A DNA stretch of 53,001 bases, taken from positions 1 to 53,001 of IMG/VR virus record IMGVR_UViG_3300030102_005935, one strand, 5' to 3'. A program made the translations under genes and the position numbers. Positions 1 to 18,249 of this stretch are shown here, piece after piece (position 1 is the first letter of the stretch; each line of letters begins with the position of its first letter). Below the pieces are notes generated by a model. That model was not told where the DNA came from, made no database searches, and was given only the letters and a program-made list of their open reading frames with translations. Source of the stretch: a virus. Lineage: Duplodnaviria; Caudoviricetes.

Positions 1-328
1 GAAGGTATCCATCATGCAACCAATTATACATGACTGTAATAGCAAGACGCGTCTTACCTGCTCCGGTAGCGGCCTTGACTGTCATGCGTGGCCTCTCAAG
101 TCCGAGCCACTTGCTGTATGCTTCCGCTTGCCACTGTCTTGCACCTTCCTCCAACTGTTCTCCTGTTCGGGTAGGAGGTAGCGAGGACAATACCATCTCT
201 TTGTCGTAGTGTTCAATACCATCCGACTGTGCGAAGTGTATCACCATGTCATCGTTAGATGAATCAACAAAGTCAATGTTCATGTCATCGTTGGTAGTGG
301 TAGTTTCAATTCCAAAATCTATTTCCAT
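1..328 (-). CDS. Superfamily 2 helicase, N-terminal part (runs off the left edge; absent from the ORF track)
   Basis: Hand translation from ATG at 328 (GGTGA SD upstream): MEIDFGIETTTTNDDMNIDF...ARQWQAEAYSKW...VKAATGAGKTRLAI; Q-motif (RxWQ) and Walker A (ATGAGKT) typical of SF2 helicases. Confidence 0.85.
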   Translation of the reverse strand, partial: MEIDFGIETTTTNDDMNIDFVDSSNDDMVIHFAQSDGIEHYDKEMVLSSLPPTRTGEQLEEGARQWQAEAYSKWLGLERPRMTVKAATGAGKTRLAITVMYNWLHDGYL

Positions 329-616
329 TTCTCTCACCAATTATTGATATTATCTTTTTATTATAATAGAGATAACTAACTATTATTCTTATTAGAAGAA
401 CATAAGATTCGTGATAATCTTCCGTGATAATCACAGGATAAGCGCGAATCACAATCTCCAACATGGGAGACAACTACACACATGTCATAGTTGTTGCGAT
501 AAGCGCGGGGTGAATATGATAAGTTGCTTGAGTAGCAACAGGTAATATGTCAAGAACATCAAGAATCGTGCGTGCTTGACAACAACGCTGAGATATTTTC
601 AGCGCAAAGTGAATTC

Positions 617-632
617 ACAACCGTATGGTTGG
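617..632. promoter_or_regulatory. Palindromic candidate operator ACAACCGTATGGTTGG, copy 1
   Basis: CAACC-N4-GGTTG dyad; identical 16-mer at 2059-2074; both copies intergenic and upstream of leftward genes. Confidence 0.5.
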
Positions 633-692
633 CGGTTTTTTTTATGTCGGAAAAAACAACCACAATGAGCATTCATTGAGGTTGTGAGACAT

Positions 693-739
693 AAAAAAAA
701 AGGGAGCCAACCCCACCGCGAGCGGTGAGGTTGACCCCC
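693..739 (-). terminator. Hairpin plus U-tract terminator downstream of the 380-aa gene
   Basis: Minus strand reads GGGGGTCAACCTCACCG-CTCG-CGGTGGGGTTGGCTCCC then T9; 17-bp stem fully paired when G-U wobbles are allowed, which works only on the minus strand. Confidence 0.75.
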
Positions 740-789
740 AATGAGGACCCCGGTTTACGATACCGGGAAACGAGTAGGACAATATTCAA

Positions 790-1932
790 TCAAAGGTTTT
801 GAAGGTCTTTGATTGACATTGAATCAATGTCAGCGTCGGACATCTTTGGAGTTCTTTGGCTGGATTGCCAATCGTTCTCTTTAGGAACCCATCTCCAATT
901 GTGTGCTGTGCCTTTGATGACCTTTGAGTCCGCAAGTTCTTGATTCAAGTCTATCCATGCTTGGACATCTTGCTTGAATTGCTTGGATACAAAGTGAGTG
1001 AAACGCATGTTGTAAAACTTACGACCACTGCCATTGATTACTGCCGCTGCCACCTTGACTAAGATGCGCTTGACGATTTGCTTCTTTTGTAGGCTAAGAT
1101 GTCCACAAAGTTCAGCGAACCAATGTCTGTAATTACCATCTAAGTCAGCACGATTGACTTTAGCGGAAGGTCTAATCTCAATGATGTCAGCAATAACAGG
1201 TTGCATGATGCTGAAGTTAGCCCAACCTGCTCGGTCCTTGAGAATTTTAGCCTCAACTCTTTGCGTGCCGTTGTTTTTGTCTTGTTCGTATCCTTTGCCG
1301 TCTTTAGCAAGGTTGAACAATACTGCTTTAGCCGCTTCAATGTCTTCATCACTTACCGCTTGGATAGCCTTGAATGATTCACCGTTTAGAGCGTCAAAGA
1401 TGTGGTTAAGTTCTGTGGCTTGCGCTTCTTCAACTTCTTCATCGCTAACCATGTCATCAAGTGATGGCATGTTGTCTCCAAAGTCAATAGACATGTCGTT
1501 GTTTGTAGTGGCCTCAGTTTGTGGCTGAGTGGTGGAAGTGTTGAACGAATCAACAAAGGTAGTGAATCCTTGACGGATATTGTTGCGGGTGGATTGTATG
1601 TCCGACCCTTTGAAGTGTTTGACAACCAAGATAGATATTTCCTTGAGTTTTTGGAAATCATTGGGCATAGACATACCGGAGTCACCTTCGTAATACTCCG
1701 TAATCTTCGTATGCTCAATGCCGACACTGTTAGCAAGGCGAACAATCAAGGTTGCGTTCTTGACTGCTTGCCGGTTGCCGGTATCGGTCTTTTTGGTCTT
1801 AATGCTGGCTTCAGTTTCATTAGCGAAGGCCATCAGTCTTGCTGCCTTTTCATCACCGTCGCCGGGTCCGAAGAAGCAATCACTGAAAGCGTCTGCTGTT
1901 TCATATACTTTGTTCTGCTGTGGCATATTCAT
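790..1932 (-). CDS. Hypothetical protein, 380 aa, two domains joined by an acidic linker containing NNDMSIDFG
   Basis: Long ORF, GGAGG SD just upstream (start may be the second ATG at 1926), terminator downstream; no family recognised. Confidence 0.85.
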   Translation of the reverse strand: MNMPQQNKVYETADAFSDCFFGPGDGDEKAARLMAFANETEASIKTKKTDTGNRQAVKNATLIVRLANSVGIEHTKITEYYEGDSGMSMPNDFQKLKEISILVVKHFKGSDIQSTRNNIRQGFTTFVDSFNTSTTQPQTEATTNNDMSIDFGDNMPSLDDMVSDEEVEEAQATELNHIFDALNGESFKAIQAVSDEDIEAAKAVLFNLAKDGKGYEQDKNNGTQRVEAKILKDRAGWANFSIMQPVIADIIEIRPSAKVNRADLDGNYRHWFAELCGHLSLQKKQIVKRILVKVAAAVINGSGRKFYNMRFTHFVSKQFKQDVQAWIDLNQELADSKVIKGTAHNWRWVPKENDWQSSQRTPKMSDADIDSMSIKDLQNL

Positions 1933-1981
1933 ACCTCCTACTCCCTCAATGGAAGCACTTTTGCAGTAAGATTGGGCGCGC

Positions 1982-1996
1982 CCTTTATAAGCAAAA
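1982..1996 (-). promoter_or_regulatory. Candidate archaeal TATA box for the leftward gene
   Basis: Minus strand TTTTGCTTATAAAGG about 55 nt upstream of the ATG at 1932. Confidence 0.45.
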
Positions 1997-2058
1997 GGCC
2001 AAAAATCGGGTTGTCAGTCTTCGCGTTCTTGCTGCGCGATGGAGTGCAAGAACACGCG

Positions 2059-2074
2059 ACAACCGTATGGTTGG
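2059..2074. promoter_or_regulatory. Palindromic candidate operator ACAACCGTATGGTTGG, copy 2
   Basis: Exact 16-bp match to 617-632. Confidence 0.5.
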
Positions 2075-2389
2075 AGCGAGCGCGTCGTGTAGTCGTCGCT
2101 CGCGACAACACGCGCCCGCGCGTTGTGTATTATCGCGTAATCGCGACACTGCGAAGCATCGCGCCGTTAGTGAAGGTGCTGATTTGCGCGAATTATCGCG
2201 CTACGCGCCCACCCCGCGGAGCAATTTGCCCCCCGCGTTAGCCGGAGTCGCGCTCGCGGCGCGGCAATTTGCCCTCCTTAACCGCGTGCGAAATACAGAC
2301 AATTTTTTCATGGGGGTCAAAAAAAAATTAGCGCAAAAAATTTTTACGACCGCTATCTTCAAGGGCAAGGTTGCTATCCGATATACCAC

Positions 2390-5300
2390 ATGGCTCGCTT
2401 TGTCCGTATCTTGAAGGCCACGAAAAGGCAAGAAAAAGACGAGCGCAAACGCAAGAGGGACGAGGCAAGAGAGGCACGCAAAGCCAAGAAAAAAGCGCGA
2501 CAGAATAAGAAAAAACAGGTGCGCGTAGTTGATGCTCCGCCACCAAACAAAGAGCCGAAGGAAGCCAAACCGGAACCACCGAAAGAAGAGCCACCAAAAA
2601 ATAAGGAGACTAAGCCACCAACGCGCGAAATTGCTGTCCGAGACAGAAAGAAAGGTAAAACCGAGAAGGCTTTTGAGTCTTTACAGCCTTATATGAACAA
2701 CTTGATGAAGAGGCATGACGCTGGTGAGATTGACATAGTGGACTTATACACTAATATTATCAACGCGAACAACCTTTTGATTGGTCAAGCACTTGGTATG
2801 GACGAAAGTGCGCTGTATGAAGCGCAGGGAGACATACCTGCAATTATGGCGGAACCTTTGATTAACGCTCCTGTAATGATGCACTTACAAAGAATGTCAA
2901 ACAAATACCCGGAACTCAAAGAAGTTCGCGCAGAAGACGAAGAAGACAACGGTAGTTTGGAAGATTTGATGGAGGCGACAAAAGGAATACGCGCTGATAT
3001 TTCATCGTTTATCGCGGACCCAATAAACATGGGAAGACCGCACCAACAAAAAGACATCAATGGTATTTACAAATTGTTGGCTCGCTTTAATCACCCATTG
3101 GCTGTAACGCTTGGTGAAGAAATACCAAAGAGCGACAAGATTGCACCAAACTACAAACCAAGAAGACCTCGCCAAATACGCGTTAGGGGAAAAATGACAG
3201 ACCGCGACTTTGAGGGTGAGATGAACCGTTTAGCGCGTGAACAATCGGAACTGTTGAGTGGGAGAACACCCGCGGGTTCTATGGTTCCCTTTGGAGGACC
3301 GCGAGCGCAAGACAAGAAATTCTATGACGAATTCTTTTCACAGACCGATATTGACCGCGGACCAAAGAAGCAAACTGGTATTGTTGTTAAACGACCAAGC
3401 ACCGCGATGACGAAAAATATTCTTGAAAAAGTCAAACAAATTAGTCGCGAAGAAGCACTTGATGATAAGGACGCGTTCAATAGTTTACAAGATAAATTCA
3501 ACAACTTCATGATTTCATTAACAGGCAATAAGGCGTTCGGAACATCGGGGCGCGCTGGTAAATTTGGTGGTGAAATTGAAACTGGTCGCGCACCAAACGC
3601 ACTTACACCGTCTATGGCAGAAGTTGGTAAGCAACTTGGTATCGGTATGCCAGCACCAAACATACCGGACATGATGCTCAAACCTCATTTAGAAGGTAAA
3701 TCACCTTTCAGTATGGAGTTGCGTGACGCATTGGCTGTTGAGTTAGGCCCTATGGATAAAACAGGTTTCCACCCATCGCTTGTGTCATCAACAGGTGAAG
3801 ACGGGCTACTAAGCAGTTTGCTTGATGATGAAACTAAAGAAACAACTGAGGGTGCTGGTTTTGCTGGAACTAAAGAGGAAATTGAAGAGAAAGCCAGTGA
3901 AGCGCGAAGAGCAAGAATTGGTGGAGTTGCAACTGAATCTTCAATGATGGAACCCGAAGATGAACTTGCGGTTGTTCAAGGTAAAAGGAAGATGTCGCCT
4001 TCTCAAAAGATGGCTGAACTTGAGCGCAGGTTGCAACAAGGTGATATTGACGATTATGAATATGAAATGCAAAGACTCGCGCTTCAAATGAATCAACACA
4101 AGATAGACAGCGATAAAGAATTAGGCGGTCTAAGTGGTGATGATTTTGATGTTAATCACGCATTCTTTGGTTTGAATGAGAATCAAATCATGGAGCGCAG
4201 TCAAATGTTTGTTGACAATCTTATCGGTATGGGTCGTGTTATACGAGAGTTGAGGTATGAAGCACACAGACATAGTGGTGCTGAGACACCCGAACAAAAA
4301 AAGAAAGTTGATAATGAAATAGCCGCTATGGGTTTGGACGCGCAACATCTTATTTCATTTGGTAATATTGACAATGCTCCGCTTAGGGACATATTAAGAT
4401 ACAACAGGCTTGATGATATTATGAACGGTAAACTAAGTCAAGTAATGCCGCGAATAACATCGCAGATGAATAGACAGCACAAAATGATGAAAGATATGGG
4501 CTTGAGCGATGTTGATGTTGTTAATGCGGCTATGAAATACGCTAACGCTGATATGAGTATTAGCGGATACAAAGATGCATTCAAGAGTCTGTTAACACAG
4601 AAGCGCAAAGAGGGTGATTTGAAATCATATCCAATTTATCGTTTGTTGCAATATTTACAGAAAAAGGGACTTCGCGAAGCAATGGACGAGGAACATCATC
4701 AAAAGGTAATGGAGCAGCAGAAAAGGTTTGAGAGAAACCACGCTGCGCGCAAAACAGAAAGAGAGTTAGGTAGTTTCAGTGCTGGTGGGGCTGATTTGAT
4801 GTCGCCGCAACCCGAACACATTTCTCATCTTTTAGAAGACAAAGAAGAATGTCTATCGTGCCACCCGGATAGATTTGGGAACCGAACCGCACAGGAAGCA
4901 AGACTGCATTCACCATTCAAGCGTGAAAGAACACCATTCGCGCATAAATCAATCACTATGCCTCTTTTGACTGATTACAAAGAAGGCAAAGGGCGAGGCG
5001 ACGCGCGTTTGTATGCTATTGCGCCGGAAGGTCAAACTTCCCTTGCTTCTATCGTCAATCATATTTATCCGGGCAAACTTGACATCAAGAAACTATTAGC
5101 AGAAGAAGAAAGAGTCAAAGAAGACCGTCAAAGAAGTGTTGCAAATTGGCGCAAAGATAAAACCAAAAAATACAAACGACTCATCAAAGATGCTGTTCTT
5201 ACAGGTAATCCACGCGCTGCAAACATTTACAAAAAGTTTGGACTTTACAAGACAATTGAGAATGCTATCGCAACAGGACCAGCGGGTATGAGCAACAAAG

Positions 5301-8300
5301 AATTAGTTGCTGCATCGTTCTTCATGAATAACGACGATTCAATTGATAAATTCCAAGAAATGCATCGTAAAAAGACGCTTATGGCTACAAGATTCAACGC
5401 TATTACTGACGCTATTGATTTCATGAAAGAGATAGCCGAAGGTCAATATGGTGGTAAAATCAAACCGGGTGCGTTGAAAAGTGAATCATTAAGACGCGCT
5501 CTTCTTAGTGAATTAGTTGGTGGGCCTATTGATGGTATTCAAAGAGCAGACAAAAGCATACTAAGAGCAAAAAGAAGCCTTGAATCATTAGACCCTATTT
5601 ACCGACAGTATTTAGCAGAACAAAAGGACTATGAGGAAAAATTAGCGCAAACCAAGATGCAGACATACATTGACGAAGATGGTAATGAGCGACAAGAACG
5701 CGGACAATATATGGAGCCATCACAAATCGCAATGATTGAAGAAATCGCTAAAAAGATTGACAAGAAGTATAGCAGTATGTTGTTAGACCGTAAAAACAAA
5801 CTTAGCACTATCAAGCGTAATGAAAACAAAAAGCAAAAACTACAAGATGCAAGCGAAGAATCTTTGTCGCGTGTTAACGAATTCATGCTTGGTGTTTTCA
5901 TCAAGGCCGGTGGTGACATTGCAAAGATTCTCAACAGCAAAAAACCAACAACGAGTATGGTATCCAAACTGTATGAACAGTTGTATGAAGACGATGACTT
6001 TGATTCAATACACCGCGCTGATACAGATGGCAACTTGAGCCGCGACTTTACTCATTCTTTGAGTAATTACAAATTGGGACGAATGGGTGAAATGGCTGGA
6101 ACAGGTATCATGGCTCATAACAACAACAAAGCATTGCCGCGTGTTAACAATATCAACCAACTACTTGCTCATCGTATCGCTATGGGCTTCCCCCTCAAAG
6201 AAGATGACATTGAGCGCGCTAAATCAATGATGTTTGATGCTGAGATGACTGATGCTGTTGATGATGAAGATGATGAAGAGTTTATGCGATTAGCGCGTGA
6301 AATGATGACCGAAGAAGAAATACAGAATCTATCGGAAAAGAAACATCATCATCATGACGACAGTGCTAACGAGTTGGGGTTAATCACAGAAGCAGAAGCA
6401 GCGCGAAGGGAGCAAAATTCACACTTTACAAGAGGTAGTGAAGAAGCCATTGAAAGAGGTGATATTAATGCGCAGTCGTTGATAAGTAATTGGCGACAAC
6501 ATGCACCAACATTATGCGGAACATGTCATGGACATAAGTTCGTTACTAAAGATGAAGCAATCTCATTCTTGCGTCATCGCATACCGGAACTGGAAGGTGT
6601 AGGAAGAGACAGTCCAAGAATGATGAAATACATATCACAAAACTTACGACCGCGAGGCACGCAAGATTTCGCAAGTCATGAAATGGCTGATGAAATGGAA
6701 GACCACGAACACGAACAATTCGCGTGTCCGGCATGTGAACACAGTGCTGATTATGTTCAAGGTGGTAAGTGTAGCAACGGTTTATGCCCCGATTGTTTAG
6801 GTAGTGGTGTCCGCGACCCATTAGATGATGAACACATACATGATGGTTACACAGACGCGGAAGGAAACAAAATAGATGGTAAAAACCATCACTATTCGCA
6901 TAACGGTGCAGTCGGCGCGAAGTTTGACCACCTTAACCAACTGCTATTACAGGGAGCAGAAATGATGCAAAGCGGTAAAATACCCGACTTTCTGCAAGAA
7001 GTCGTTAAACGCGCTTCACCAGTATGGCAGCAGTATGGTGATTATGTAGGGACAGGTAAATACAAAACAATTGAGGATAAAAGAAATGCAGCGCGAAAGA
7101 AAGAATTGGAACCGTTGGAGATTGACCCTAACGCGCCGGAGATACCCGGTCCACCAAGAGAAGAAAACGAAGAAACGGCAGATAACACAGATATGAATAT
7201 TGATTTCGGTCAAGAAAAACCAAAAGATAACACAGATATGAATATTGATTTCGGTCAAGAAAAAGAAGAGCCAAGAATTGACATACCGTTATACGGTGTG
7301 CAAAAGAAGGCTCTTGATTCTCATCACAAGATAATGCTTGAAAACAGAATTAATCAATTAGAAATGATTGGTGTAAAAACACAAGAAAACGCTGGTAATG
7401 CTGACGCAGTAAAGATGATAAAAGATTTAGCGGCAGAAATTAGAGCAGACCCCGCTTTCATCAGCGGTGAAGTTCATGGAAACGATATGCACCCGCTGGT
7501 TGATAAAATACACAAGTTGCAAGAATATGCAGAAGCGGCGTATGTTGCTTCCGAAATGGGCTTTGACGACAGAAGAAAAATACCGTATGATGAAAAAGGC
7601 AACATACTAACAAGCGTCAAGGACATATTTGCTGGTGATTCACCTTTGACATTTGCTGATTATGAACCGTTGACCCCTATGCATGGACACAACTTGACAT
7701 TAAGTGAAATAGCAGAAGGACTGTTTGAAGATGGTGCGACTCATTCACCAAGACCGATTGATGATAAAAGATTAGCAGACTTATTCCGCGGTAACAATAA
7801 AGCGATGGGTGTCATCAATCGTCGCCAGCAATACAACAAACTTGACAAAAATAAACTAAGCAAAATAGCCTCCGCGCTTGATGGAATTGACAAACCAATG
7901 GTTGCTCGTAAAACAACTAATTTGAGAAGCGACTCATTAGATGCTATATTGAAAGAATTTGGCGAAGAAGGTAAAGTCTCCGAGATGGATAAACCGCAGT
8001 TGACTTATAGTGATGAAACAATGAATGCGTTTAAGCAAGCAGGTGCTACAGATGTTAACGCATTAATTACTGCACCAAACGCTAACAAACAAAATCGCGC
8101 AATCAACGAAGGATACAATGTGAACTTGAATAGTTCAATCAAAGAGTTGTGGCAAGAGTATGTTCTAAAGACAGCAATGAGAACATTCATGACGCGCGTT
8201 AACAACCCTCTTGATTTCCCAAAGATACCCGAAAACATCACACCGTCAAACATGAAACAGTTAGTTGGTGAAGATGTTGGGTTGTTCAAATTGTTAAGAG

Positions 8301-9019
8301 ATGAAGCCGCGAAACTATGTGGTTATGAAAATGAAGATGAGTTTAGTAAAAAGGTTGGGTTGACCAGCAAAATAGAGATTACTGACGGTAAAGGAAGAGT
8401 TGCGCGAGAGTTGAACCCAAGAGAATTCAAAGCAGATGTTATGCAGAATGCTAACCATGAAGATAGTGCTAAATTAGATTTAGGTTTTGTCAAATATCAA
8501 AAAGACGATGAAGGTAATCTCATTAGTGCTAAGTTTACACCAACAGATTTGAAAAAGTTGTTTGCTAATTCACAAAAATTAGCATTCTCAGCAGAAGATA
8601 AGGCGATGTATGACGGTATGGTAAAATCCGCTCAATGGCATCACTATCCTAATTGGTATCATAGAGATGTGATGCGCGATGTATTACAAGGTCAAGAAGG
8701 CAAAGAAGATGGGTTTAGTGATTATGATGAGTTGAGTCAAGCATTCCAAAATGGCCTGTTGCCACCGGAGATAGATAAAAGACTCAAAGAATCACTTATT
8801 CTAACAAGAATGTCGCACCCTACATTGAATCATCAAAACTACGGTGATATGTTAGCGTATGACCACGCGAGACAGGAAATGTTGAGAATGCAAAGAATGT
8901 CGCGTATGCAACGATATGGAACTAACCCGTATCTTGGACCTACACCCACGCAACCAACGGAGATGCCCCAGCAACAACAGCAACAGCCCGCAATTGATTT
9001 TGAGGGCGATTCTCAATAA
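2390..9019 (+). CDS. Giant hypothetical protein, 2209 aa; basic N-terminus, helical/coiled-coil regions, Cys-rich Zn-finger-like segment
   Basis: Uninterrupted ORF; CLSCH, CGTCHG, CPACEH, CSNGLCPDCLGSG (DnaJ-like CxxCxGxG); tandem DNTDMNIDFG. Confidence 0.9.
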   Translation: MARFVRILKATKRQEKDERKRKRDEAREARKAKKKARQNKKKQVRVVDAPPPNKEPKEAKPEPPKEEPPKNKETKPPTREIAVRDRKKGKTEKAFESLQPYMNNLMKRHDAGEIDIVDLYTNIINANNLLIGQALGMDESALYEAQGDIPAIMAEPLINAPVMMHLQRMSNKYPELKEVRAEDEEDNGSLEDLMEATKGIRADISSFIADPINMGRPHQQKDINGIYKLLARFNHPLAVTLGEEIPKSDKIAPNYKPRRPRQIRVRGKMTDRDFEGEMNRLAREQSELLSGRTPAGSMVPFGGPRAQDKKFYDEFFSQTDIDRGPKKQTGIVVKRPSTAMTKNILEKVKQISREEALDDKDAFNSLQDKFNNFMISLTGNKAFGTSGRAGKFGGEIETGRAPNALTPSMAEVGKQLGIGMPAPNIPDMMLKPHLEGKSPFSMELRDALAVELGPMDKTGFHPSLVSSTGEDGLLSSLLDDETKETTEGAGFAGTKEEIEEKASEARRARIGGVATESSMMEPEDELAVVQGKRKMSPSQKMAELERRLQQGDIDDYEYEMQRLALQMNQHKIDSDKELGGLSGDDFDVNHAFFGLNENQIMERSQMFVDNLIGMGRVIRELRYEAHRHSGAETPEQKKKVDNEIAAMGLDAQHLISFGNIDNAPLRDILRYNRLDDIMNGKLSQVMPRITSQMNRQHKMMKDMGLSDVDVVNAAMKYANADMSISGYKDAFKSLLTQKRKEGDLKSYPIYRLLQYLQKKGLREAMDEEHHQKVMEQQKRFERNHAARKTERELGSFSAGGADLMSPQPEHISHLLEDKEECLSCHPDRFGNRTAQEARLHSPFKRERTPFAHKSITMPLLTDYKEGKGRGDARLYAIAPEGQTSLASIVNHIYPGKLDIKKLLAEEERVKEDRQRSVANWRKDKTKKYKRLIKDAVLTGNPRAANIYKKFGLYKTIENAIATGPAGMSNKELVAASFFMNNDDSIDKFQEMHRKKTLMATRFNAITDAIDFMKEIAEGQYGGKIKPGALKSESLRRALLSELVGGPIDGIQRADKSILRAKRSLESLDPIYRQYLAEQKDYEEKLAQTKMQTYIDEDGNERQERGQYMEPSQIAMIEEIAKKIDKKYSSMLLDRKNKLSTIKRNENKKQKLQDASEESLSRVNEFMLGVFIKAGGDIAKILNSKKPTTSMVSKLYEQLYEDDDFDSIHRADTDGNLSRDFTHSLSNYKLGRMGEMAGTGIMAHNNNKALPRVNNINQLLAHRIAMGFPLKEDDIERAKSMMFDAEMTDAVDDEDDEEFMRLAREMMTEEEIQNLSEKKHHHHDDSANELGLITEAEAARREQNSHFTRGSEEAIERGDINAQSLISNWRQHAPTLCGTCHGHKFVTKDEAISFLRHRIPELEGVGRDSPRMMKYISQNLRPRGTQDFASHEMADEMEDHEHEQFACPACEHSADYVQGGKCSNGLCPDCLGSGVRDPLDDEHIHDGYTDAEGNKIDGKNHHYSHNGAVGAKFDHLNQLLLQGAEMMQSGKIPDFLQEVVKRASPVWQQYGDYVGTGKYKTIEDKRNAARKKELEPLEIDPNAPEIPGPPREENEETADNTDMNIDFGQEKPKDNTDMNIDFGQEKEEPRIDIPLYGVQKKALDSHHKIMLENRINQLEMIGVKTQENAGNADAVKMIKDLAAEIRADPAFISGEVHGNDMHPLVDKIHKLQEYAEAAYVASEMGFDDRRKIPYDEKGNILTSVKDIFAGDSPLTFADYEPLTPMHGHNLTLSEIAEGLFEDGATHSPRPIDDKRLADLFRGNNKAMGVINRRQQYNKLDKNKLSKIASALDGIDKPMVARKTTNLRSDSLDAILKEFGEEGKVSEMDKPQLTYSDETMNAFKQAGATDVNALITAPNANKQNRAINEGYNVNLNSSIKELWQEYVLKTAMRTFMTRVNNPLDFPKIPENITPSNMKQLVGEDVGLFKLLRDEAAKLCGYENEDEFSKKVGLTSKIEITDGKGRVARELNPREFKADVMQNANHEDSAKLDLGFVKYQKDDEGNLISAKFTPTDLKKLFANSQKLAFSAEDKAMYDGMVKSAQWHHYPNWYHRDVMRDVLQGQEGKEDGFSDYDELSQAFQNGLLPPEIDKRLKESLILTRMSHPTLNHQNYGDMLAYDHARQEMLRMQRMSRMQRYGTNPYLGPTPTQPTEMPQQQQQQPAIDFEGDSQ
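7180..7264 (+). repeat. Tandem duplication, 40 bp identical, period 45 bp, encoding DNTDMNIDFGQEK twice
   Basis: AGATAACACAGATATGAATATTGATTTCGGTCAAGAAAAA at 7180-7219 and 7225-7264. Confidence 0.95.
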
Positions 9020-9912: not shown

Positions 9913-10635
9913 TTGGTTGCAACATTCGCTGGTAGCGCACTTATGGGTGCTGTTGTGTATGGCCGCGAATTGTATAATTTTCTTAAACCGCGCAGAATTG
10001 GCGTTTACGGTCCGACGCAAGTTGGAAAAACCACACTTGACCAATTTATGCGCACACCGGGAGAAATGGACGATATAGAGGAAAGGACGATGCACGCGAA
10101 ACGGTTATTTGGCGGAGGATATGTTCTTCCTAAAGCAACAAGGAAGCGTTTGCGCTGGAAAGGTGAAAAAAGAGTCGTGCATTCGGCTGATATTGGCGGT
10201 CAACAGCGTTTTTGGAATCTATGGATTGATGATATGGTTGATAGACAAGTGGAAATTGCTATTTTTATGACTGACACGCGTGTTTTGAAAGGTAATGGTG
10301 CGCAAATTATTGACGCAGTAGGTGGATTTGAGTATCTTGTTGACTCATTGATAGAAAAAAGATGGAAATATCGCTCTTTAAAATCAAGATTGAAAGGAAA
10401 ACGCTACGCTCCAAAGCAAATATGGCTTGTAGCGAACAAAGCCGATGAATGGTGGGACGAAAACGCTAACATTTTGTGGCAATCTAACCGATTGCGAGAA
10501 CATAAAGTGTTTGATGCACACCGTCCAGCCATGCGAAGACTACAAAAAGCAGGTATTCCGTGTCGTGTTAGCATGATGGCAACCAAAATCGGCTGGAATG
10601 TGGAAAAAACAATGATAGAAATGTTAAGTTGGTGA
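9913..10635 (+). CDS. Ras-superfamily (Arf/Sar-like) small GTPase with hydrophobic N-terminal helix
   Basis: G1 GPTQVGKTT, candidate G2 Thr (EERT), G3 DIGGQQRFWNLW, G4 VANKAD, G5-like MAT. Confidence 0.88.
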   Translation: MVATFAGSALMGAVVYGRELYNFLKPRRIGVYGPTQVGKTTLDQFMRTPGEMDDIEERTMHAKRLFGGGYVLPKATRKRLRWKGEKRVVHSADIGGQQRFWNLWIDDMVDRQVEIAIFMTDTRVLKGNGAQIIDAVGGFEYLVDSLIEKRWKYRSLKSRLKGKRYAPKQIWLVANKADEWWDENANILWQSNRLREHKVFDAHRPAMRRLQKAGIPCRVSMMATKIGWNVEKTMIEMLSW

Positions 10636-10639
10636 TAAA

Positions 10640-11524
10640 ATGCTTGGAAATACACCCCAAAATGACCTATTACGCCTTGCCGCGCAAACACAGATGAGTC
10701 TTGCGCAGATGCAACAGCAAGCGACTGCACAAGCCGCGATGAATAACGCAAGTGAGCATATAGAAGTGCCACAAGTCAATTTTTACCCTTCACAACACCC
10801 AAACCCCAAAAAAGCGCGTAAAAAAGACATAAAACAGGCATATAAACTGCTAAAACCGACAAAAAGAAGCATTTTTTCACCGCGAAGATGGTTATTTGGA
10901 GGAAAATACCGATATAACACCAACACAATGCGTTGTGTTATTGATGGGGCCGATATTGAACACCTTTTACGGCATGCTGGGAACATATATGAGCAAGTAA
11001 TTGACGAAGAAACTGGCAAATCATTGTGGGAATTATACTTCAAAAACCCCGTTACAGGCGAAGTTGAAGCCTTTGTAGCACGCGAAAATGTCACAAGTGG
11101 GCGTAAAATGCGCGGAACTTACTGCCCGGAACACTTACATTTGTATCATTTACTATGTAAATGGGAGAAAGAAGAAGAAAAAGAGCAAGAAGCGGAAACA
11201 GGAACGCTAAAAGCCAAGTTGAAAAAGGGTGTTTCAACCGTTGCTGTGCCATTAAGTAGTATCAAAAAGAAAGATAACACCCCTCCTATACTCGCAAAAT
11301 ACGAACCTTTCTTCCAAATGCTCAAACAAGACAACATTCCTATTACACATCTAACCAATACTGCTACCGGAGTCAACGATTTGGTAATGATTGTGTTTGA
11401 TATGCGACAATTCCAAGCAGGGAATAACGCAAGATTGCTTTTTGACGCTCTCGCGATGCATCAAATCCAACAGCAATCCGCGCCTTTACCTTTACCGACA
11501 GAATCAAATGATGGGAGCGCGTGA
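10640..11524 (+). CDS. Hypothetical protein, 294 aa, Q-rich N-terminus, possible split Zn site (CVID...YCPEH)
   Basis: ORF with GGTGA SD, in operon with the GTPase. Confidence 0.8.
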   Translation: MLGNTPQNDLLRLAAQTQMSLAQMQQQATAQAAMNNASEHIEVPQVNFYPSQHPNPKKARKKDIKQAYKLLKPTKRSIFSPRRWLFGGKYRYNTNTMRCVIDGADIEHLLRHAGNIYEQVIDEETGKSLWELYFKNPVTGEVEAFVARENVTSGRKMRGTYCPEHLHLYHLLCKWEKEEEKEQEAETGTLKAKLKKGVSTVAVPLSSIKKKDNTPPILAKYEPFFQMLKQDNIPITHLTNTATGVNDLVMIVFDMRQFQAGNNARLLFDALAMHQIQQQSAPLPLPTESNDGSA

Positions 11525-11533
11525 GGTGGTATC

Positions 11534-12115
11534 ATGGTATGGCCGTTTAATAGTAATAATCAGCAAAACCAACAACCAAATGGTGCTTTGAATCTCGGTT
11601 TAGCGGGTGGACAACAGCAAGTTCCGGTGCAGGGACAGCAACAACAGTGGGGACAACAGCAATATGGTTTCCAATATCAAGCACCTCCGAGTGAAATGGA
11701 GATATTATCCGCGATGATAACTACAAATCCAATGATAGACAAGTGGTTATCGGACAACAACGGTGATAATATGAATATGCTTGTGTCGCTTTTAAGTAGT
11801 TTAGTTGCGGTTTCAATCAATACTCTTCTTGCGAATGCGCGTTTAGTTGAAGATGGAGATGGATATAAGTTTGATTTTAGCGGCGTTCAAGGTATGCCAA
11901 CGGCTGATAGCGTCATGATGAGTCAAACACAAATACTCAACAAGGCATCTAACAATGTTCAACAAAAATCTATGGAATTTCAACAAATGGTTAACCTTGC
12001 GAACCAAAGCGTGATGCAAGGTATGTTGAATGATGCTATGGCTGACCCCGGATTGATGCAAAATGTTGGTGGCGGTATTGGCTCATTCCTTCGCGGTGTT
12101 ACAACAGGACGGTGA
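11534..12115 (+). CDS. Hypothetical Q/N/M-rich protein, 193 aa
   Basis: GAGGTGG SD; low-complexity N-terminus, central hydrophobic helix, amphipathic C-terminus. Confidence 0.8.
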   Translation: MVWPFNSNNQQNQQPNGALNLGLAGGQQQVPVQGQQQQWGQQQYGFQYQAPPSEMEILSAMITTNPMIDKWLSDNNGDNMNMLVSLLSSLVAVSINTLLANARLVEDGDGYKFDFSGVQGMPTADSVMMSQTQILNKASNNVQQKSMEFQQMVNLANQSVMQGMLNDAMADPGLMQNVGGGIGSFLRGVTTGR

Positions 12116-12354
12116 TGATTATGGATATGACATCTTTTTTTACAACAGTTAGTGATATGACTAATTTGCGCAAATCTGTCGTAGTTGACATGATTATGGT
12201 TCAACTTATCTCTTTGACACTCGGTTGTTTCATGCTTTTAGTGTTTTCCGGCCCCGATATGACATCAAAAGACCTAAGTTGGGTCATAGGTGCATTATTC
12301 ATCTGTTTCAGTGCTACTGGTATCGTTTATCGTCGCCTCGGACAACAAGGTTGA
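12112..12354 (+). CDS. Small 2-TM membrane protein (holin-like topology)
   Basis: Two hydrophobic segments and basic C-terminus YRRLG; GGTGA SD before ATG 12121. Confidence 0.78.
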   Translation: MMIMDMTSFFTTVSDMTNLRKSVVVDMIMVQLISLTLGCFMLLVFSGPDMTSKDLSWVIGALFICFSATGIVYRRLGQQG

Positions 12355-12603
12355 CCATTTACCAACTGGACATTCACTATTTTTCAAAATAGTTTTTGTT
12401 TTGATAAAACAACCACATAGACTACATCTATCGTGATTTCTTTCGGGGCATTTCAAACAAATGTTGTAACGACGCTCTCTTTCTGTTAAGTCTGCGCGTT
12501 GGTTAGTGATTAAATCAGCCGCGGCTCGCGAAAGACTCTTCGCTGTGCCTAATGAGATTGGAATTCCCGCTACTTTTGGGGCGCGACCTAACCTTTTTCT
12601 CAT
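12295..12603 (-). CDS. Small Cys-rich protein (DUF6171-like)
   Basis: RYNICLKCP...RCSLCGCF..KT.L....CPVGKW pattern common in viral Zn-binding proteins. Confidence 0.75.
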   Translation of the reverse strand: MRKRLGRAPKVAGIPISLGTAKSLSRAAADLITNQRADLTERERRYNICLKCPERNHDRCSLCGCFIKTKTILKNSECPVGKWSTLLSEATINDTSSTETDE

Positions 12604-12640
12604 GGAAACCCTCTTTTGCTACAACTACTTGGTCTTTACT

Positions 12641-13309
12641 ATGGCGGAGCGTATATCAAGAGCATCTTGTAAGTTCTGTCAAGACCCCGACCGCGATGGT
12701 ATTGAGGAAATGATGAAGGCTGGATTGATTACTGCGAAGCAGTTAGATAAAGACAAAGGCTGGCGAGAAGGAACCGCTGACAGACATTTTCGCAACCACG
12801 CGGGGGAATATCACATGGGGAGTAACAGCGAATGTCCTCTTTGCACATCTCCCCAACGAGAAAATCTTGAAATGGCTTATTTTAATGCCAGTATGACTGT
12901 TGAAGAAATCGCACAAGAATTACAAATGCCCGAATCAAGCGTGTATCACCATCTCAAGCATCATCTTAAGCCAATAGTGCAAAAAGGCGCGGCGGATATT
13001 ATCATAATTGAAGCAGGTAAAGAAATGGACAGTCTAAGAACAAACTTGGCGCGAATCAATGGTGAGTTAGGTCATTTCCTTGACGATGCAGACCGCAATG
13101 ACCCGCAATATGTTCGCAACATAGTATCTTTGCACAAAGAAGTTCGCGAAACAGTCAAAGACATCATGAGAGTGCAAGAGCGCGCGGCTGGAACTACTAA
13201 CGAAAACATGACTGCACAAACCATAAACATACTCAAAGTTGAATTAGCGAAAGAGTCCCCCGAAGTGTGGGCGCGACTACGCGGCAAGTTGATGGGAGGT
13301 GATGAATGA
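12641..13309 (+). CDS. Putative terminase small subunit / HTH DNA-binding protein (start revised to ATG 12641)
   Basis: Two repeats of CxxC-helix-HTH-HxxxH (CKFCQ..HFRNH; CPLCT..HLKHH) followed by a coiled coil; lies upstream of TerL. Confidence 0.6.
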   Translation: MAERISRASCKFCQDPDRDGIEEMMKAGLITAKQLDKDKGWREGTADRHFRNHAGEYHMGSNSECPLCTSPQRENLEMAYFNASMTVEEIAQELQMPESSVYHHLKHHLKPIVQKGAADIIIIEAGKEMDSLRTNLARINGELGHFLDDADRNDPQYVRNIVSLHKEVRETVKDIMRVQERAAGTTNENMTAQTINILKVELAKESPEVWARLRGKLMGGDE

Positions 13310-14607
13310 TGGTAGGTGGACCCGAAGGTAGCACCGCAGGTATGCGTTTTAATCCCCGCGAAAGTGCAGAAGAATTACAAGATGACTCTTCAGTTGGTCG
13401 TGAAGATTCCGAAGAGCGTGCTTTGCATGATGCGAAGAAGAGGGAGAAACAAGAGAAACGCGCTAAAATGATGCAAGGTCTTCAACACATGAAGATAAAA
13501 ATACCACAAAAACGCGATGATGAAGAAGATAGCGACATGAAAAGACAGGCCGAGGCCGGTCAAATGTCCGGTCAAGTTGGTCAAAATGAGGCTATTGATG
13601 GCGCAAACCCACGCGGTAGTTTTGGTGGTGGTGCTGGAATGAACATGTTGTTGTCATCAGCACCTTTCATTGATGACGCTTTTGACATGATTCGCAAAAA
13701 GAAAAACGATGGGCCGAAGTTTGATGACGATAAACCCAAAAAGACAACAACTATTGATACTGTTCTTTCACGAAGGCGCGCTAAAAAAGGTAGGCGTAAG
13801 AAAAAGATGGGTAAAACCACTGAATCTTTCAAAGGTAGGCAAGGTAAAAGCAAAAAGAAACTCTTTGGTAATGTCACAAGGCCGGGTTATGTTCGTAATC
13901 CCGCTGCAATGACAGCGTTAAGAGGTGGTCAAGCACCTTACCAAACATTCGGTTTGATGGGTTCACGCAGACAATCTCCAACAGCACCGAGATTCTTGAC
14001 TGTTTCATCGGGAAGAAGTCGTGCAAGACAGGCTACTAACCCACGAACAAAATTAGGTCAAGATGTTCGTCAAGAAGTTCGTCAAGACACCCCAACTCAA
14101 GATTTGACCCCTCCTACTCCAACTGTGACACCGGAAGCGAGAATAGCACGCGCTGTTCGTGGTTCACGCGATTCTCGTCCACATAAAAAGGCAACAAGAC
14201 AACCAAGAACTGCATCAACACCCGGTGGTAAAGATTTAACAGAAGCAATATCGTTTGGAGGTGGTGCTTCTGCTATGGCCGCGGGCGGTATTGGTTCAAC
14301 AGACGACGCTATATTAGCCTCCGAAGAGTTCTTACTTAAGCGCGCGCAGAAGTTGAAATTAGGAATATCTGCTCGCGACCGTATTGAATATCGTCAATTG
14401 ATAGACCAACTCAATCATCTATTGCGCCGATTAATGCGTAAAGAGGATAAGTCAATGCAGGGTGCTGATGAAAAATCGTCACCTAACTCATCGGGTGGTC
14501 TTTCATCTAATCCAACAGGGGCTACTGAAACAGACCCCGATGACGACGCTACGCGATGGGGCGCACACCCTTACGATTTGTATGTTAGGAGAGGTGGTGT
14601 AGGTTGA
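13306..14607 (+). CDS. Hypothetical low-complexity basic protein, 433 aa (possible internal head protein)
   Basis: GGAGGTGA SD; K/R-rich and apparently disordered. Confidence 0.85.
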   Translation: MMVGGPEGSTAGMRFNPRESAEELQDDSSVGREDSEERALHDAKKREKQEKRAKMMQGLQHMKIKIPQKRDDEEDSDMKRQAEAGQMSGQVGQNEAIDGANPRGSFGGGAGMNMLLSSAPFIDDAFDMIRKKKNDGPKFDDDKPKKTTTIDTVLSRRRAKKGRRKKKMGKTTESFKGRQGKSKKKLFGNVTRPGYVRNPAAMTALRGGQAPYQTFGLMGSRRQSPTAPRFLTVSSGRSRARQATNPRTKLGQDVRQEVRQDTPTQDLTPPTPTVTPEARIARAVRGSRDSRPHKKATRQPRTASTPGGKDLTEAISFGGGASAMAAGGIGSTDDAILASEEFLLKRAQKLKLGISARDRIEYRQLIDQLNHLLRRLMRKEDKSMQGADEKSSPNSSGGLSSNPTGATETDPDDDATRWGAHPYDLYVRRGGVG

Positions 14608-16415
14608 GCGATATTATCCTAAAAGGAGAAGGAGTGTTTTACTTTGATGGTAAAGAATATCACGACCAAACCTTTCCTCCCGAAGAATCCGACCACGAAA
14701 ACATCTCTCATTTTCATATCAACAGTAAAACAGGAAAACCGTTCAAAGAACTTGAGGGTAAGGGTTTAGTCGGTAAATGGCCTATGGAAATCGCTGCTGG
14801 TATTTTGGCTCGCGAAATCATGGAGCAAGGATACAAAGACGAAAACGGTGTAAGAAGAAAACCTACAACCGAAAGCGATGCTTTGCGTAGCGCGAAAAGA
14901 ATGATGAACGAAGCAACAGAAGATTTCAATAAGACAAAAAGAGCAGCAGGTGATGATTATCACACATTAAAAACACCGTTTGATTTAGCAAATGGCGGTA
15001 TATTACACCCCGAATATGCAACCAATCATTATGGTGGACACGAATCTCGTCGTAAATCAACAGCAGAAAGAAGAACGCGAACAGATGATGGGAGATTAAT
15101 TGTTAATCACCCGCGTAATCAAGCGCATGAAAAACTTGGTCAACATCTTGAGTCTGCTGCTTTACACATTTTTGATGAATTAGAACAGCGCGCAAAAAAG
15201 AACGGTATCAAAACTTCTTTGGGTGCTGAACAAAATGTCATTGAACCTCAGCAACTTACGCAGGGTATCACACATCGTTATACTTCTAACGACAAACCGC
15301 CGGGTCATAGAGAACACAAGATAGTCCCCTCTCATTACAAAGATTTGCACGCTCAAACTGCTGCTTATGGACAAATATCTCCGATGGATATTGTGTCTGT
15401 TTTACCATCGGACTTCTTCTATCCGTCAACAGCCGGTGGTATGTCAACAAGAATAATGAATCAACTTATGGAAATGGGATATGACCAACCAACGGCGAGG
15501 GCTATGGCTCGCGCTCCCGTCAATCAGTTGTTATACGGTAGTGGTAAAGAAGGAAGAGAAAGCGGTCTTAACAAAGTAGTTCGTAACATGCGCGCTAAAA
15601 TGCAAGTTGATGACAACGACGATATACATGCTATGTTCAAAAACCATCTATCTCATATCGCACCTAAGATAAGAGGTGGCGATAATGGAAGAAATAACAA
15701 AGCGATTGAAATATTGGCTCTATTGAAAACTGGTGAAGAGTTAGGTGTTGAGCCAGCAGATTACTCAATGTATCCATCAGCACCAGCGAGCGTGATGGAT
15801 AATTGGCGCGAAGTCGCTCTTTCTCAAGGTGGCTCAACTATTGATATGGCCGCACTTGGTAGTGTTGATGAAAGACATGATATGCGCGGTAATTTAGTTT
15901 CACAAGATAGTTATCATCGTCATGAAAAATTCCCATCTTATTTGAGCGGTGGTTCCTTTGCTGATATTTTACCACCTACCCCTATTGTTGAAGAACCGTT
16001 GAGTCAACCTCCCGCCGTGGACTTTGATAATATAGAAGAAGAGCCACCAGTGCCACCGCAACAAATAGACCCTCTTGGTCAACAACCTCGTTATCCATTA
16101 CAAGATTTAGGTTTTAGCGACATGTCTCAATTCAATCCATTCCAATTGTCCGATGATGACCCAATGGGTGTTATCGCGACAATCATGGAGCGTGTGCAAA
16201 TGCATGACGCAGGTGGCTCTTTGTTAGTAAAATATGACCCTATGGATAATTATGACATGCATAAATTGGGTCAAAATGTAGGCATGTCAAGTAATGATGT
16301 TCGCGCGATTGCAATGTCGCTTGGTGATTGGGAGATTATAGCGAAATCTTTTAACACTACGCACGATGTGGTTCGCGCTATTAAGAGGTCAGTAGGAGGC
16401 GCGCTAAATGGTTGA
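14604..16415 (+). CDS. Hypothetical protein, 603 aa
   Basis: TTG start overlapping the previous stop; His-rich; N-terminal MSDIILKG. Confidence 0.85.
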   Translation: MSDIILKGEGVFYFDGKEYHDQTFPPEESDHENISHFHINSKTGKPFKELEGKGLVGKWPMEIAAGILAREIMEQGYKDENGVRRKPTTESDALRSAKRMMNEATEDFNKTKRAAGDDYHTLKTPFDLANGGILHPEYATNHYGGHESRRKSTAERRTRTDDGRLIVNHPRNQAHEKLGQHLESAALHIFDELEQRAKKNGIKTSLGAEQNVIEPQQLTQGITHRYTSNDKPPGHREHKIVPSHYKDLHAQTAAYGQISPMDIVSVLPSDFFYPSTAGGMSTRIMNQLMEMGYDQPTARAMARAPVNQLLYGSGKEGRESGLNKVVRNMRAKMQVDDNDDIHAMFKNHLSHIAPKIRGGDNGRNNKAIEILALLKTGEELGVEPADYSMYPSAPASVMDNWREVALSQGGSTIDMAALGSVDERHDMRGNLVSQDSYHRHEKFPSYLSGGSFADILPPTPIVEEPLSQPPAVDFDNIEEEPPVPPQQIDPLGQQPRYPLQDLGFSDMSQFNPFQLSDDDPMGVIATIMERVQMHDAGGSLLVKYDPMDNYDMHKLGQNVGMSSNDVRAIAMSLGDWEIIAKSFNTTHDVVRAIKRSVGGALNG

Positions 16416-18249
16416 ATTATGGGAAATAGAATGGAATAGTAGTATGATACAACATGGTCGTGACTTAGGCACGATGGAATTTATCTTTGCAAAAGGCGGC
16501 AACCTCTCGGATATGAACTATGTCATGTTTGATGTTCAAGACAATACTTGGGAACCTCTCATCAAGGCTGTCGCGGAGCGCGACCATTCTCATCCCGACA
16601 TCATTCGTAAGAATGTTCCTCAACAACAACAACAACCGTTTTTCATGGATAACAGTCAACAAGGTGCATTACCGTTTATGGGAACAGGTGCAAGAAGCGC
16701 AAGAGAAATGAACAGACTTTACAACGCTGGTCAGCGAGCAGCAGACCTCCAAAATTACGCTCAAGACCCCAGCGCAATGAACGCTTTGCGCGCTGGTAAA
16801 TACGGAACTGCCGCAGGTAAAGGTTTGATAAATGTAGGTCGTGGTATTATGCAAGGTGCGCGAGCCACCCGCGATTACATGAGAGACACAGCCGGACCTA
16901 AGATGAAAGAAATGGCTGGTCGTGGCGTGGAAGCGGCTGGTCGTGGTCTAAGTGCGGCAAAAGACATGACTGGTCGTGGCCTAAGTGCGGCAAAAGACAT
17001 GACTGGTCGTGGGCTAAGTGCAGCAGCAGACATGGCTGGTCGTGGGCTTCAAGCAGTCAAAGACAGCGGTTTAGGTGAGCGTATGAAGAACTTTATGAGC
17101 GGTGCGGGTCGTGCAATCAGCGATTTGCGATTCTTACCGCAAGCAGCAAAGCAATCATACAAACAAATGGTAGCCGCAGGTGAAGACGAGGCTCGTCGTT
17201 CAGCACTTGAAGGCGGTCTTAGTCGCGGACAAAAAGAAATTGACGACGCATCAAGAAGGGCAGTTCCGGGTTCGCAGTTTTATGATTCCGAAATGGACCG
17301 AGCGCGAGCAAGCACAAGTCAAGGACTCTCTCGCGATTTCAATATCACTCCAAGAGTTCACGAAAAAGGTAAGAACAAAGGACAACCGATGGAATCAGTT
17401 GAAGATGCTATGCGCCGCGAAATTCAAGAAATTGGTGAAAGACGCAAATTACCAAAAGAAGGTTTCTTCGCTGGTATGAGGCGACGCGGTGATGAGCGAC
17501 GAGAGGCGAAAGCGGCACAACAACGAGGTGATGCGTTTGCTCCATCTAACATCGTGCCGGAAGAACCACCTAAACTACCCGATGCACCAACACCGGAAGC
17601 AGAAGCGGCGGCTAATGCTGATGCGAAAGTCACAGATACAAATGAAGACATGAACATTGACTTCGGACCCGAAACAGGAACACCACCGGACACAGGTGTA
17701 GTTGGCCCTCAACCTTCACAGAAAGCAACAGACGCTATGGCGATATTTGACAAAGTGCAAGAAAACAAGCGCAAGCGAATGGGAATGGAAACCGCTACGG
17801 CGACTGAACCAACACGCGGGCAAAGTGCTGTTACTGGCGCAGGTATGAAAATAGGTGCAACCGCAGGTGATAGAGTCGCGGGTGGGTTAGATGAGTTCTT
17901 TGCACAACACGAAAAAACACCATTCGCTGACCGCGAAGCGGCAAGGCAAGCCATGTTACAAGGTAATATAGGAACGAGCAGAATGAAAGAGGCTGGTAAA
18001 TTCTCCGGTAAAACAGCAAAGGCTGTTGAGCAAGTGTTGACTGAAATGTATGGTCCAGCGCAAGCAAAAGCAATTGTTCAAGCCGCGGAGCAAGGTAATC
18101 CCGACGCTCAAGAAATTGTTGAAGAAGCCGCTGAAAAAACTGACAATAGCGACATGAACATTGACTTCGGAAGCGAAATGATGACTTTGAGCGCGGATGA
18201 ACATCAAGCGGCTTGGGATTCGTTGTTGAAGCAGATGAGTATTAGGTGA
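16408..18249 (+). CDS. Hypothetical Ala/Gly-rich protein, 613 aa, with 11-mer repeats and two DMNIDFG motifs
   Basis: GGAGG SD; GRGLSAAKDMT repeats; ends AAWDSLLKQMSIR. Confidence 0.85.
   Translation: MVELWEIEWNSSMIQHGRDLGTMEFIFAKGGNLSDMNYVMFDVQDNTWEPLIKAVAERDHSHPDIIRKNVPQQQQQPFFMDNSQQGALPFMGTGARSAREMNRLYNAGQRAADLQNYAQDPSAMNALRAGKYGTAAGKGLINVGRGIMQGARATRDYMRDTAGPKMKEMAGRGVEAAGRGLSAAKDMTGRGLSAAKDMTGRGLSAAADMAGRGLQAVKDSGLGERMKNFMSGAGRAISDLRFLPQAAKQSYKQMVAAGEDEARRSALEGGLSRGQKEIDDASRRAVPGSQFYDSEMDRARASTSQGLSRDFNITPRVHEKGKNKGQPMESVEDAMRREIQEIGERRKLPKEGFFAGMRRRGDERREAKAAQQRGDAFAPSNIVPEEPPKLPDAPTPEAEAAANADAKVTDTNEDMNIDFGPETGTPPDTGVVGPQPSQKATDAMAIFDKVQENKRKRMGMETATATEPTRGQSAVTGAGMKIGATAGDRVAGGLDEFFAQHEKTPFADREAARQAMLQGNIGTSRMKEAGKFSGKTAKAVEQVLTEMYGPAQAKAIVQAAEQGNPDAQEIVEEAAEKTDNSDMNIDFGSEMMTLSADEHQAAWDSLLKQMSIR
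16939..17064 (+). repeat. 33-bp coding tandem repeat (GRGLSAAKDMT, about 4 units)
   Basis: GGTCGTGGNCTAAGTGCGGCAAAAGACATGACT-like units starting at 16939, 16972, 17005, 17038. Confidence 0.9.

Follow-up and report, generated by a model that had tools for sequence, protein, structure and literature searches.

A short peptide shared by unrelated, fast-evolving proteins of a putative group A magrovirus is respelled in concert among close relatives and may act as a docking motif

Short docking peptides shared by otherwise unrelated proteins are textbook knowledge for sliding clamps and for the cargo of the T4 head, and in both settings the peptide is conserved. PIP boxes are conserved and not private to a lineage, and the T4 capsid targeting sequence is an N-terminal leader that is removed by the head protease. 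Phage T4 packs internal proteins by means of this targeting peptide, and phage P1 packs a giant helicase-methylase. In the present work a stretch of viral DNA of 53,001 bases (IMG/VR record IMGVR_UViG_3300030102_005935, hereafter the window), which is an entire viral contig, was analysed for a peptide of the form D-M-[NS]-I-D-F-G, hereafter the tag, that recurs in unrelated proteins encoded on both strands and is spelled differently in closely related viruses.

A six-frame search of the window with the pattern D-M-[NS]-I-D-F returned six matches in four proteins, namely a helicase fragment, p380, p2209 and p613 (Table 1). Every copy named in a preliminary description of this DNA, which had reported the recurrence in at least four unrelated proteins on both strands, was found at its place. 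When residues were shuffled 300 times within the open reading frames (ORFs) of the window, DM.[IM]DF gave a mean of 0.017 matches (maximum 1) against 6 observed and M.IDF a mean of 0.063 (maximum 2) against 7 observed; the excess of the tag is real and lies far beyond chance. The sequence EEIDFEV at the N-terminal end of the large terminase (TerL) is conserved across all relatives and was left out of the count. The core D-M-x-I-D-F-(G) has the size of a short linear motif (3-10 residues, few fixed positions), its carriers are otherwise unrelated, and its copy number and presence vary among lineages.

The window and a second IMG/VR contig, G003 (48,905 bases), close into one circular map of ~101 kb and represent one magrovirus genome: window positions 3-100 are 100% identical to G003 48808-48905 (98 nt) and positions 52448-53001 are 98% identical to G003 3-556 (554 nt). 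With G003, which supplies the other half, the genome is complete. Over both contigs the strict pattern gave 10 copies in six proteins, and the four strict copies on G003 lie in two further carriers. A Zn-ribbon protein of 173 aa ends in two tag copies, and a DUF932 protein of 705 aa carries a conserved DMWIEFGE followed by a run of three variable copies, of which two are strict. No copy was found in the family-B polymerase (PolB), the clamp loader, the clamp-like protein, the nucleases, the thermosome or the head and tail genes of the window and G003. The tag is thus not virus-wide, as had been proposed; only six to seven proteins are marked and no replisome, head or tail protein is among them.

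Table 1. Coordinates of the tag copies, their carriers and other features mentioned in the text
Feature	Contig	Position	Strand	Remarks
SF2 (ResIII/DEAD) helicase, N-terminal 113 aa	window	2-340	-	Pfam ResIII; remainder on G003
DMVIHF	window	233-250	-	degenerate third helicase copy, from translation
DMNIDFV	window	266-286	-	helicase; core DM[NS]IDF 269-286
MEIDFG	window	311-328	-	helicase N-end; begins at likely start codon; MEIDF (314-328) found by M.IDF
p380	window	790-1932	-	helical N-domain, floppy linker, C-domain
D-L-x-x-L	window	790-820	-	p380 C-terminus
DMSIDFG	window	1477-1497	-	p380 linker; core 1480-1497
p2209	window	2390-9019	+	giant hypervariable protein with Cys clusters
DMNIDFG	window	7190-7210	+	p2209, first of 45-nt tandem pair
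DMNIDFG	window	7235-7255	+	p2209, second of tandem pair
PAIDFEG	window	8987-9007	+	variant copy, four residues short of p2209 C-end
240-aa protein	window	9913-10635	+	small-GTPase-like motifs
p603	window	14604-16415	+	occasional carrier; orthologs 35-73% identical
p603 linker, low-complexity in most other lineages	window	~16000-16200		p603 tag site
PAVDFDN	window	16011-16031	+	variant copy, p603 linker; not in the preliminary description
p613	window	16408-18249	+	mostly helical, hypervariable, directly upstream of TerL
DMNIDFG	window	17647-17667	+	p613 linker 1
DMNIDFG	window	18151-18171	+	p613 linker 2
TerL	window	18256-19656		tailed-virus gene
EEIDFEV	window	18289-18300		TerL N-end, not counted
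Helical peptide	window	20293-20307	+	C-end of 101-aa protein after TerL
Gly/Met/Pro repeat	window	23700-23960	+	portal, C-terminal part
p1984	window	25204-31158	+	head module
Helical peptide, first copy	window	35344-35358	+	273-aa protein
Helical peptide, second copy	window	35791-35805	+	273-aa protein
DUF932 protein	G003	40974-43088	-	705 aa
pX	G001	4463-5380		winged helix-turn-helix-like
pX	L113	14522-15787		ortholog
Accessory ORF	G001	82542-83447		43% identical to L113/L022
251-aa protein	L127	9267-10019		directly upstream of PolB

All seven copies of the window lie in the frame and sense of their gene, on both strands. The tag codons are GAT ATG AAT ATT GAT TTC GGT in both tandem copies of p2209 and GAC ATG AAC ATT GAC TTC GGA in p613, a difference between genes already pointed out in the preliminary description. 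The codon identity between genes of the window was 0.54 against 0.46 expected, and over five genomes the share of identical codons between genes was 0.39-0.65 against 0.38-0.56 expected from codon usage. Since codon sharing between genes is close to the codon-usage prediction, the agreement of the peptide between genes is held by selection on the peptide, in keeping with the earlier proposal. Tag copies within one gene had a codon identity of 0.67-0.80, above expectation, which indicates that tandem copies arise by local DNA duplication.

The relatives that were compared comprised 80 loci around TerL (TerL 80-99% identical), further loci around the helicase, p2209, the polymerase and an SNF2 helicase, and the genomes G001 and G002. 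The window-type tag, searched with a loose regular expression, was absent from all 80 TerL loci. Alignment of the p613 orthologs revealed that both tag sites hold a short peptide which is the lineage's own and is identical at the two sites, and in each genome the private peptide marks the same orthologous protein set at the same places. The private spellings were QPI[DE]FG in L096/L097 (5 copies, 3 proteins), [IV]D[FW]G[DE] in L113 and L022 (10 copies, 7 proteins), F-[DS]-M-[TNS] in L114 and L054 (8 copies, 6 proteins), [DE]EFxF in L117 and L017 (6 copies, 5 proteins), LD[VI]GDI in G001 (11 copies, 5 proteins), NTMPx[IL] in L112 and L339, [IV]SF[TE] in L118 and PIVFG in two database proteins. 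In narrower form six of these read QPIDFG, IDWGD, F-D-M-T, EEFxFN, NTMPD[IL] and [IV]SFTF. The spellings differ even at a TerL identity of 98-99%. In the orthologs the sites of the tag are conserved but the exact motif is not.

In six other genome sets the private patterns had 5-11 copies against shuffle means of 0.02-0.21, and in a matrix of eight patterns by nine genome sets only 8 of the 63 cells off a set's own pattern were non-zero, with 1-2 copies each. Comparison of the window and G001 showed that TerL is 98.5%, the portal 95%, the major capsid protein (MCP) 91% and the protease 81% identical, while the tags share nothing. Similarly, the Zn-ribbon and DUF932 proteins of G001 and L113 are 84% and 86% identical; their flanks are conserved and the tag cassette alone is rewritten. 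The two tag sites of p613 were also compared by an unsupervised test, in which 24 of the 47 distinct alleles had a two-site repeat of a strength that no more than 10 of 200 shuffles attained (5% level). In 13 alleles the repeat was above all 200 shuffles, and for these the match given by the second copy of the same allele was equalled in at most 5 of the 46 other alleles, so that the repeats are largely allele-private.

Searches at the DNA level in IMG/VR were also carried out. The exact DNA pattern for DMNIDFG was found at 15 loci, with one copy each, in unrelated contexts or in non-coding or very short frames, and these loci were taken as chance matches. The IDWGD spelling, used as a 15-base pattern, matched at least 120 unrelated contigs and was too unspecific. 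Locus L002 carries one DMNIDFG copy in an acidic linker and no second copy.

Conserved peptides resembling tags were observed besides the private ones. The tag cassette of the DUF932 protein is flanked by DMW[IV]EFGE and (T)PNFGDALG, both constant among lineages (G003, L113, L114, L117, L118 and G001); the former is nearly the window spelling and may be an ancestral or universal copy. The winged helix-turn-helix-like protein pX has acidic VFTFDD-type copies, which G001 and L113 conserve in spite of their different private tags; the copies resemble the spelling of the L117 lineage and may represent a second code.

The helicase fragment, p380, p2209 and p613 had no family in common in Pfam, PHROGs, NCBIfam and PADLOC, and only the helicase fragment matched one (ResIII). 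In these collections p380 and p613 had no significant match, the NCBIfam and PADLOC searches of the carriers gave generic helicase matches only, and the sole family match of p2209 was one weak PHROG of unknown function (E 6e-4). The Zn-ribbon protein, used as query in a word-indexed homolog search, gave three matches. Full-length orthologs of the helicase match ResIII/DEAD/Helicase_C and bear their own genome's private tag at the N-terminal end, as does the p380 linker in the orthologs. The p2209 proteins are 33-36% identical between lineages whose adjacent genes are 80-98% identical; the C-terminal end reads QPIDFG.., QPEVDFSQ or QQIDFNMDS in close relatives, and no tag was present there in more distant relatives. 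At the p603 tag site AQPIDFG was found in L096/L097, and an aromatic/glycine-rich low-complexity stretch (GFGGFG, FNPYFDP etc.) in most other lineages (orthologs L016-L095). In G001 no open frame above 250 aa was found for the p380 ortholog after the two ends of this genome had been joined. As to other features of p380, its AlphaFold2 (AF2) model gave no match at E <= 0.001 in a fold search against PDB, and its C-terminus carries D-L-x-x-L, which is conserved in all six orthologs, unlike the variable linker tag.

In the AF2 models of p380 and p613 the tags lie in low-confidence linkers between helical domains. The p380 model (6 sequences) had a mean predicted local distance difference test score (pLDDT) of 57.7, with values below 50 over residues 132-175 and of 24-33 in the tag stretch. 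The p613 model (38 sequences) had a mean of 66.4, with 33-46 in the tag stretches (~40 for the tag of linker 1, ~33 for that of linker 2). For the helicase, p2209 and the other carriers disorder was deduced from composition only. The earlier view that the copies sit in flexible linkers agrees with the models of p380 and p613 and with the composition of the helicase and p2209.

A co-evolving short linear docking motif that ties a fixed set of rapidly evolving proteins of the virus to one shared, virus-encoded partner, or to one another, is an explanation that we regard as reasonably likely. Since relatives respell all carriers together, the peptide behaves as a shared docking signal, and this interpretation is well supported by the concerted respelling and the peptide-level selection. 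The peptide would probably be recognized in the form of a short beta-strand whose hydrophobic side chains alternate (M-x-I-x-F), and it usually lies amid acidic residues. It would be displayed on flexible ends and linkers, namely the N-terminal end of the helicase, the p380 linker, the tandem pair and C-terminal tail of p2209, the two linkers of p613 and sometimes p603, and, in the half covered by G003, the C-terminal end of the Zn-ribbon protein and the DUF932 protein of about 700 aa. One common partner would read every copy within a genome and would change as fast as the tag, which would give each lineage its private spelling; the tags would thereby assemble the fast-evolving proteins into a multi-protein complex around this reader.

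Several results weigh against this explanation. The preliminary description had proposed that the tag docks on one hub protein; concerted respelling in all carriers speaks for the docking, and no binding partner for the tag was found. The private patterns were written after each genome had been viewed, which makes the own-genome counts descriptive and leaves the shuffles and the cross-genome zeros as the real controls. By the crude test applied to p613, 23 of the 47 alleles had no significant two-site repeat, so that some members of the family may have a degenerate tag, a single copy or none. Copies in the p2209 tail and in p603 are limited to some lineages. In the AF2 monomers of p380 and p613 the tags were not docked on the proteins' own domains, a weak negative given 6 and 38 alignment rows. 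Finally, when tag similarity was compared with the identity of 14 proteins over 47 alleles (a crude Mantel-type test in which automatic calling got some tags wrong), the correlations ranged from 0.06 to 0.29, with 0.12 for p1984, and no protein was singled out.

Under the docking explanation a virus-encoded reader is the most likely one, given that the spelling differs among near-identical viruses, and p2209, p1984, p613 or p380 would be the best guess. Between G001 and the L113/L022 lineage most genes are 80-98% identical and one accessory ORF 43%; far below that background are p2209 (33%), p380 (33%), p613 (35%), p1984 (43%, from L094), pX (49%) and the helicase (61%). If the reader is encoded within the sequenced part, it should be one of these six; the private tag is missing only in p1984 and pX. 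The protease and the capsid protein are disfavoured as readers because they are conserved between the window and G001 while the tags differ, and the same applies to a conserved host hub. Of the hubs proposed earlier (PCNA, RNAP, Cdc48, RPA), a conserved host protein fits poorly because viruses with 98-99% identical TerL spell the tag differently. That the reader is one of the hypervariable large proteins, including a version in which p1984 loads the capsid, we regard as just on the probable side; the clamp and a pairing of the tags with each other are both improbable, and the remainder falls to a host or unseen partner. Searches of p2209 and p1984 with phmmer against PDB sequences gave no match.

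A special case of docking, in which the tags address the carriers to a head-internal protein, with p1984 as the best candidate, and the helicase, the DUF932 protein, p2209 and others are packed and delivered with the DNA, is in our opinion unlikely. The location of p1984 in the head module, between the portal and the protease, suggests a head-internal protein and hence a capsid-loading role. This protein bears no tag and is as hypervariable as the carriers, being 53% identical to that of G001, and 43% identical between the L094 lineage and G001, where the portal and HNH genes are 95-97% identical. Moreover, p603 and p613 are encoded directly upstream of TerL in the structural operon, and the rapid change seen in all of these proteins would be in line with delivery into the host and exposure to its defences. 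The tags, however, are internal, C-terminal and tandem rather than N-terminal leaders, no protease site is evident, and the MCP (91%) and protease (81%) barely change while the tag changes completely. In addition, a second, conserved helical tag sits on small head-module proteins of the same virus, and the identity of p1984 did not track tag similarity (rho 0.12 in the crude test). Virion delivery of the carriers is a guess.

Some observations on the head module may be added. The neighbours of p1984 are 93-97% identical where p1984 itself is 43-53% identical, and its residues ~1582-1682 gave two weak but concordant leads to an ATP-dependent DNA ligase domain (NCBIfam, E 0.005; ESM Atlas, 0.83, at chance level). 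The second shared peptide, helical-looking and of the form ..PM(E/N)x(S/A)W[RL][LM]LK, is present in the window at the C-terminal end of a 101-aa protein and twice in a 273-aa protein; it was found on four proteins in G001 and two in G002, and its spelling, in contrast to that of the acidic tag, is conserved from one lineage to the next.

Docking of the carriers on a viral sliding clamp is improbable. A 251-aa protein encoded directly upstream of PolB matches PHROG 947, 'DNA polymerase processivity factor' (E 4.6e-5), and gave a weak language-model (Atlas) lead to gp45-like clusters. It is also the fastest-changing protein above 200 aa near PolB (64/46/33/47% identity against 87/77/72/67% for PolB). 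From these matches it is probably the sliding clamp, which is listed for all magroviruses in the article text of Philosof et al. (PMC5434244), and several carriers look DNA-related. The part of PMC2988020 that concerns T4 clamp-binding tails describes them as hydrophobic-acidic, placed on flexible linkers, interchangeable and able to work internally. On the other hand, private tags are absent from the polymerase, the clamp loader and the nucleases, the C-terminal end of PolB is conserved across lineages with different tags, and Pfam and PDB profile searches gave no clamp identity for the 251-aa protein. The predicted complex of the clamp-like protein and a 41-aa p2209 segment with both tags scored 0.02, which speaks neither for nor against binding.

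Equally improbable is the absence of a separate reader, in which case the tags would pair mutually as beta-strands and so join the carriers in a network or condensate, and the need for compatibility would lead to concerted respelling. Such pairing would agree with the hydrophobic/polar alternation found in every spelling, with the frequent tandem arrangement of copies (up to 3-5 per protein) and with the presence of tags on all of the three most divergent universal proteins; many carriers, however, have just one or two copies, and the tags are unstructured in the AF2 monomers. That the tags serve for cleavage by the prohead protease, or by a different protease of the virus, is very unlikely: an S78 prohead protease is encoded and sites in interdomain linkers would suit processing, but the window and G001 share this protease at 81% identity and yet have tags with no common residue pattern, neither the MCP nor the protease itself bears a copy, and one copy starts with the start codon of the helicase. 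The reading that duplication or gene conversion spread a DNA-level repeat whose peptide has no function is already disfavoured and barely credible, for although tandem copies within a gene share codons and the p2209 pair is a perfect 45-nt repeat, the copies follow the coding frame and orientation in seven of seven cases, in five genomes the codon identity between genes lies close to what codon usage predicts, and orthologs keep the sites while the spelling changes.

A wider proposal, based on the docking explanation, is that the tag would be a private zip code wiring about seven fast-evolving proteins, among them the helicase, the DUF932 and Zn-ribbon proteins and two giants, to a virus-encoded reader, with code and reader rewritten together in each lineage, so that the proteins of co-infecting relatives could not be borrowed or hijacked. 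The tag would then form a self/non-self barrier in protein assembly and possibly a loading code for proteins delivered with the DNA. We regard this proposal as rather doubtful. Nevertheless, tag copies rewritten in step among viruses that are otherwise 90-99% identical constitute a natural experiment on the co-evolution of a peptide code and its reader, and matched versus mismatched spellings offer a direct handle on binding partners. From sequence alone the tag defines a module of proteins of unknown function in a very abundant group of surface-ocean archaeal viruses. If the code sets compatibility between relatives, it would bear on the separation of recombining virus populations.

The window belongs to a tailed virus and, besides TerL, encodes a portal, an S78 prohead protease, an MCP, a tail tube and a tape measure protein. 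The related genome G001 (102,931 bases, 98% complete) carries genes for a family-B polymerase, an RFC-like clamp loader, an SNF2 helicase and a thermosome subunit. In the article text of Philosof et al. (PMC5434244) the same gene set characterizes the group A magroviruses, which are viruses of Marine Group II archaea, and the window together with G003 is assigned to a group A magrovirus. The 240-aa protein of the window has small-GTPase-like motifs in its translation (GPTQVGKTT, DIGGQ, NKAD) and is 92-98% conserved in relatives; PHROGs gave one weak match, to a family of unknown function, and a small GTPase, for which it is a candidate, would be unusual in an archaeal virus. The C-terminal part of the portal carries a long Gly/Met/Pro repeat of GGMPP-like units followed by a conserved C-terminal tail, and the repeat is also found in G001 and G002.

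No description of the tag was found in the papers searched. In word searches of the article texts 'motif' was absent from PMC5434244, and PMC11706807 named only a helix-turn-helix motif; a full-text literature search on short linear motifs, phage docking and co-evolution returned nothing relevant.

Comparison with known systems indicated partial likeness in three cases. The T4 capsid targeting sequence of the internal proteins and Alt is similarly a short peptide shared by unrelated, fast-changing viral proteins and recognized by one viral reader. The magrovirus tag, however, is N-terminal in the helicase only and internal or C-terminal in the other carriers, there is no sign of cleavage, and, unlike in the T4 cargo, a helicase and proteins encoded alongside replication genes are among the carriers. 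The PIP-box clients of archaeal and eukaryotic PCNA likewise display a short motif in disordered tails of many enzymes that bind one ring-shaped hub, but the pattern Qxx[LIM]xx[FY][FY] is not matched by any tag copy or its flanks, which have neither the Q nor the aromatic pair. The T4 clamp tails (gp43, gp33 and gp55 on gp45) resemble the tag in that one short hydrophobic-acidic peptide is carried on flexible linkers by unrelated proteins, and the motif is also portable, interchangeable and functional when internal, as stated in the part of PMC2988020 that deals with these tails. In T4 the motif is C-terminal and present on the polymerase, and the T4-like phages conserve it, whereas the magrovirus tag is N-terminal, internal, tandem or C-terminal, has a spelling private to each lineage and has no copy in the PolB of G003, G001 and contig 1389. 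The T4 clamp-client tails are the closest textbook parallel to the magrovirus tag.

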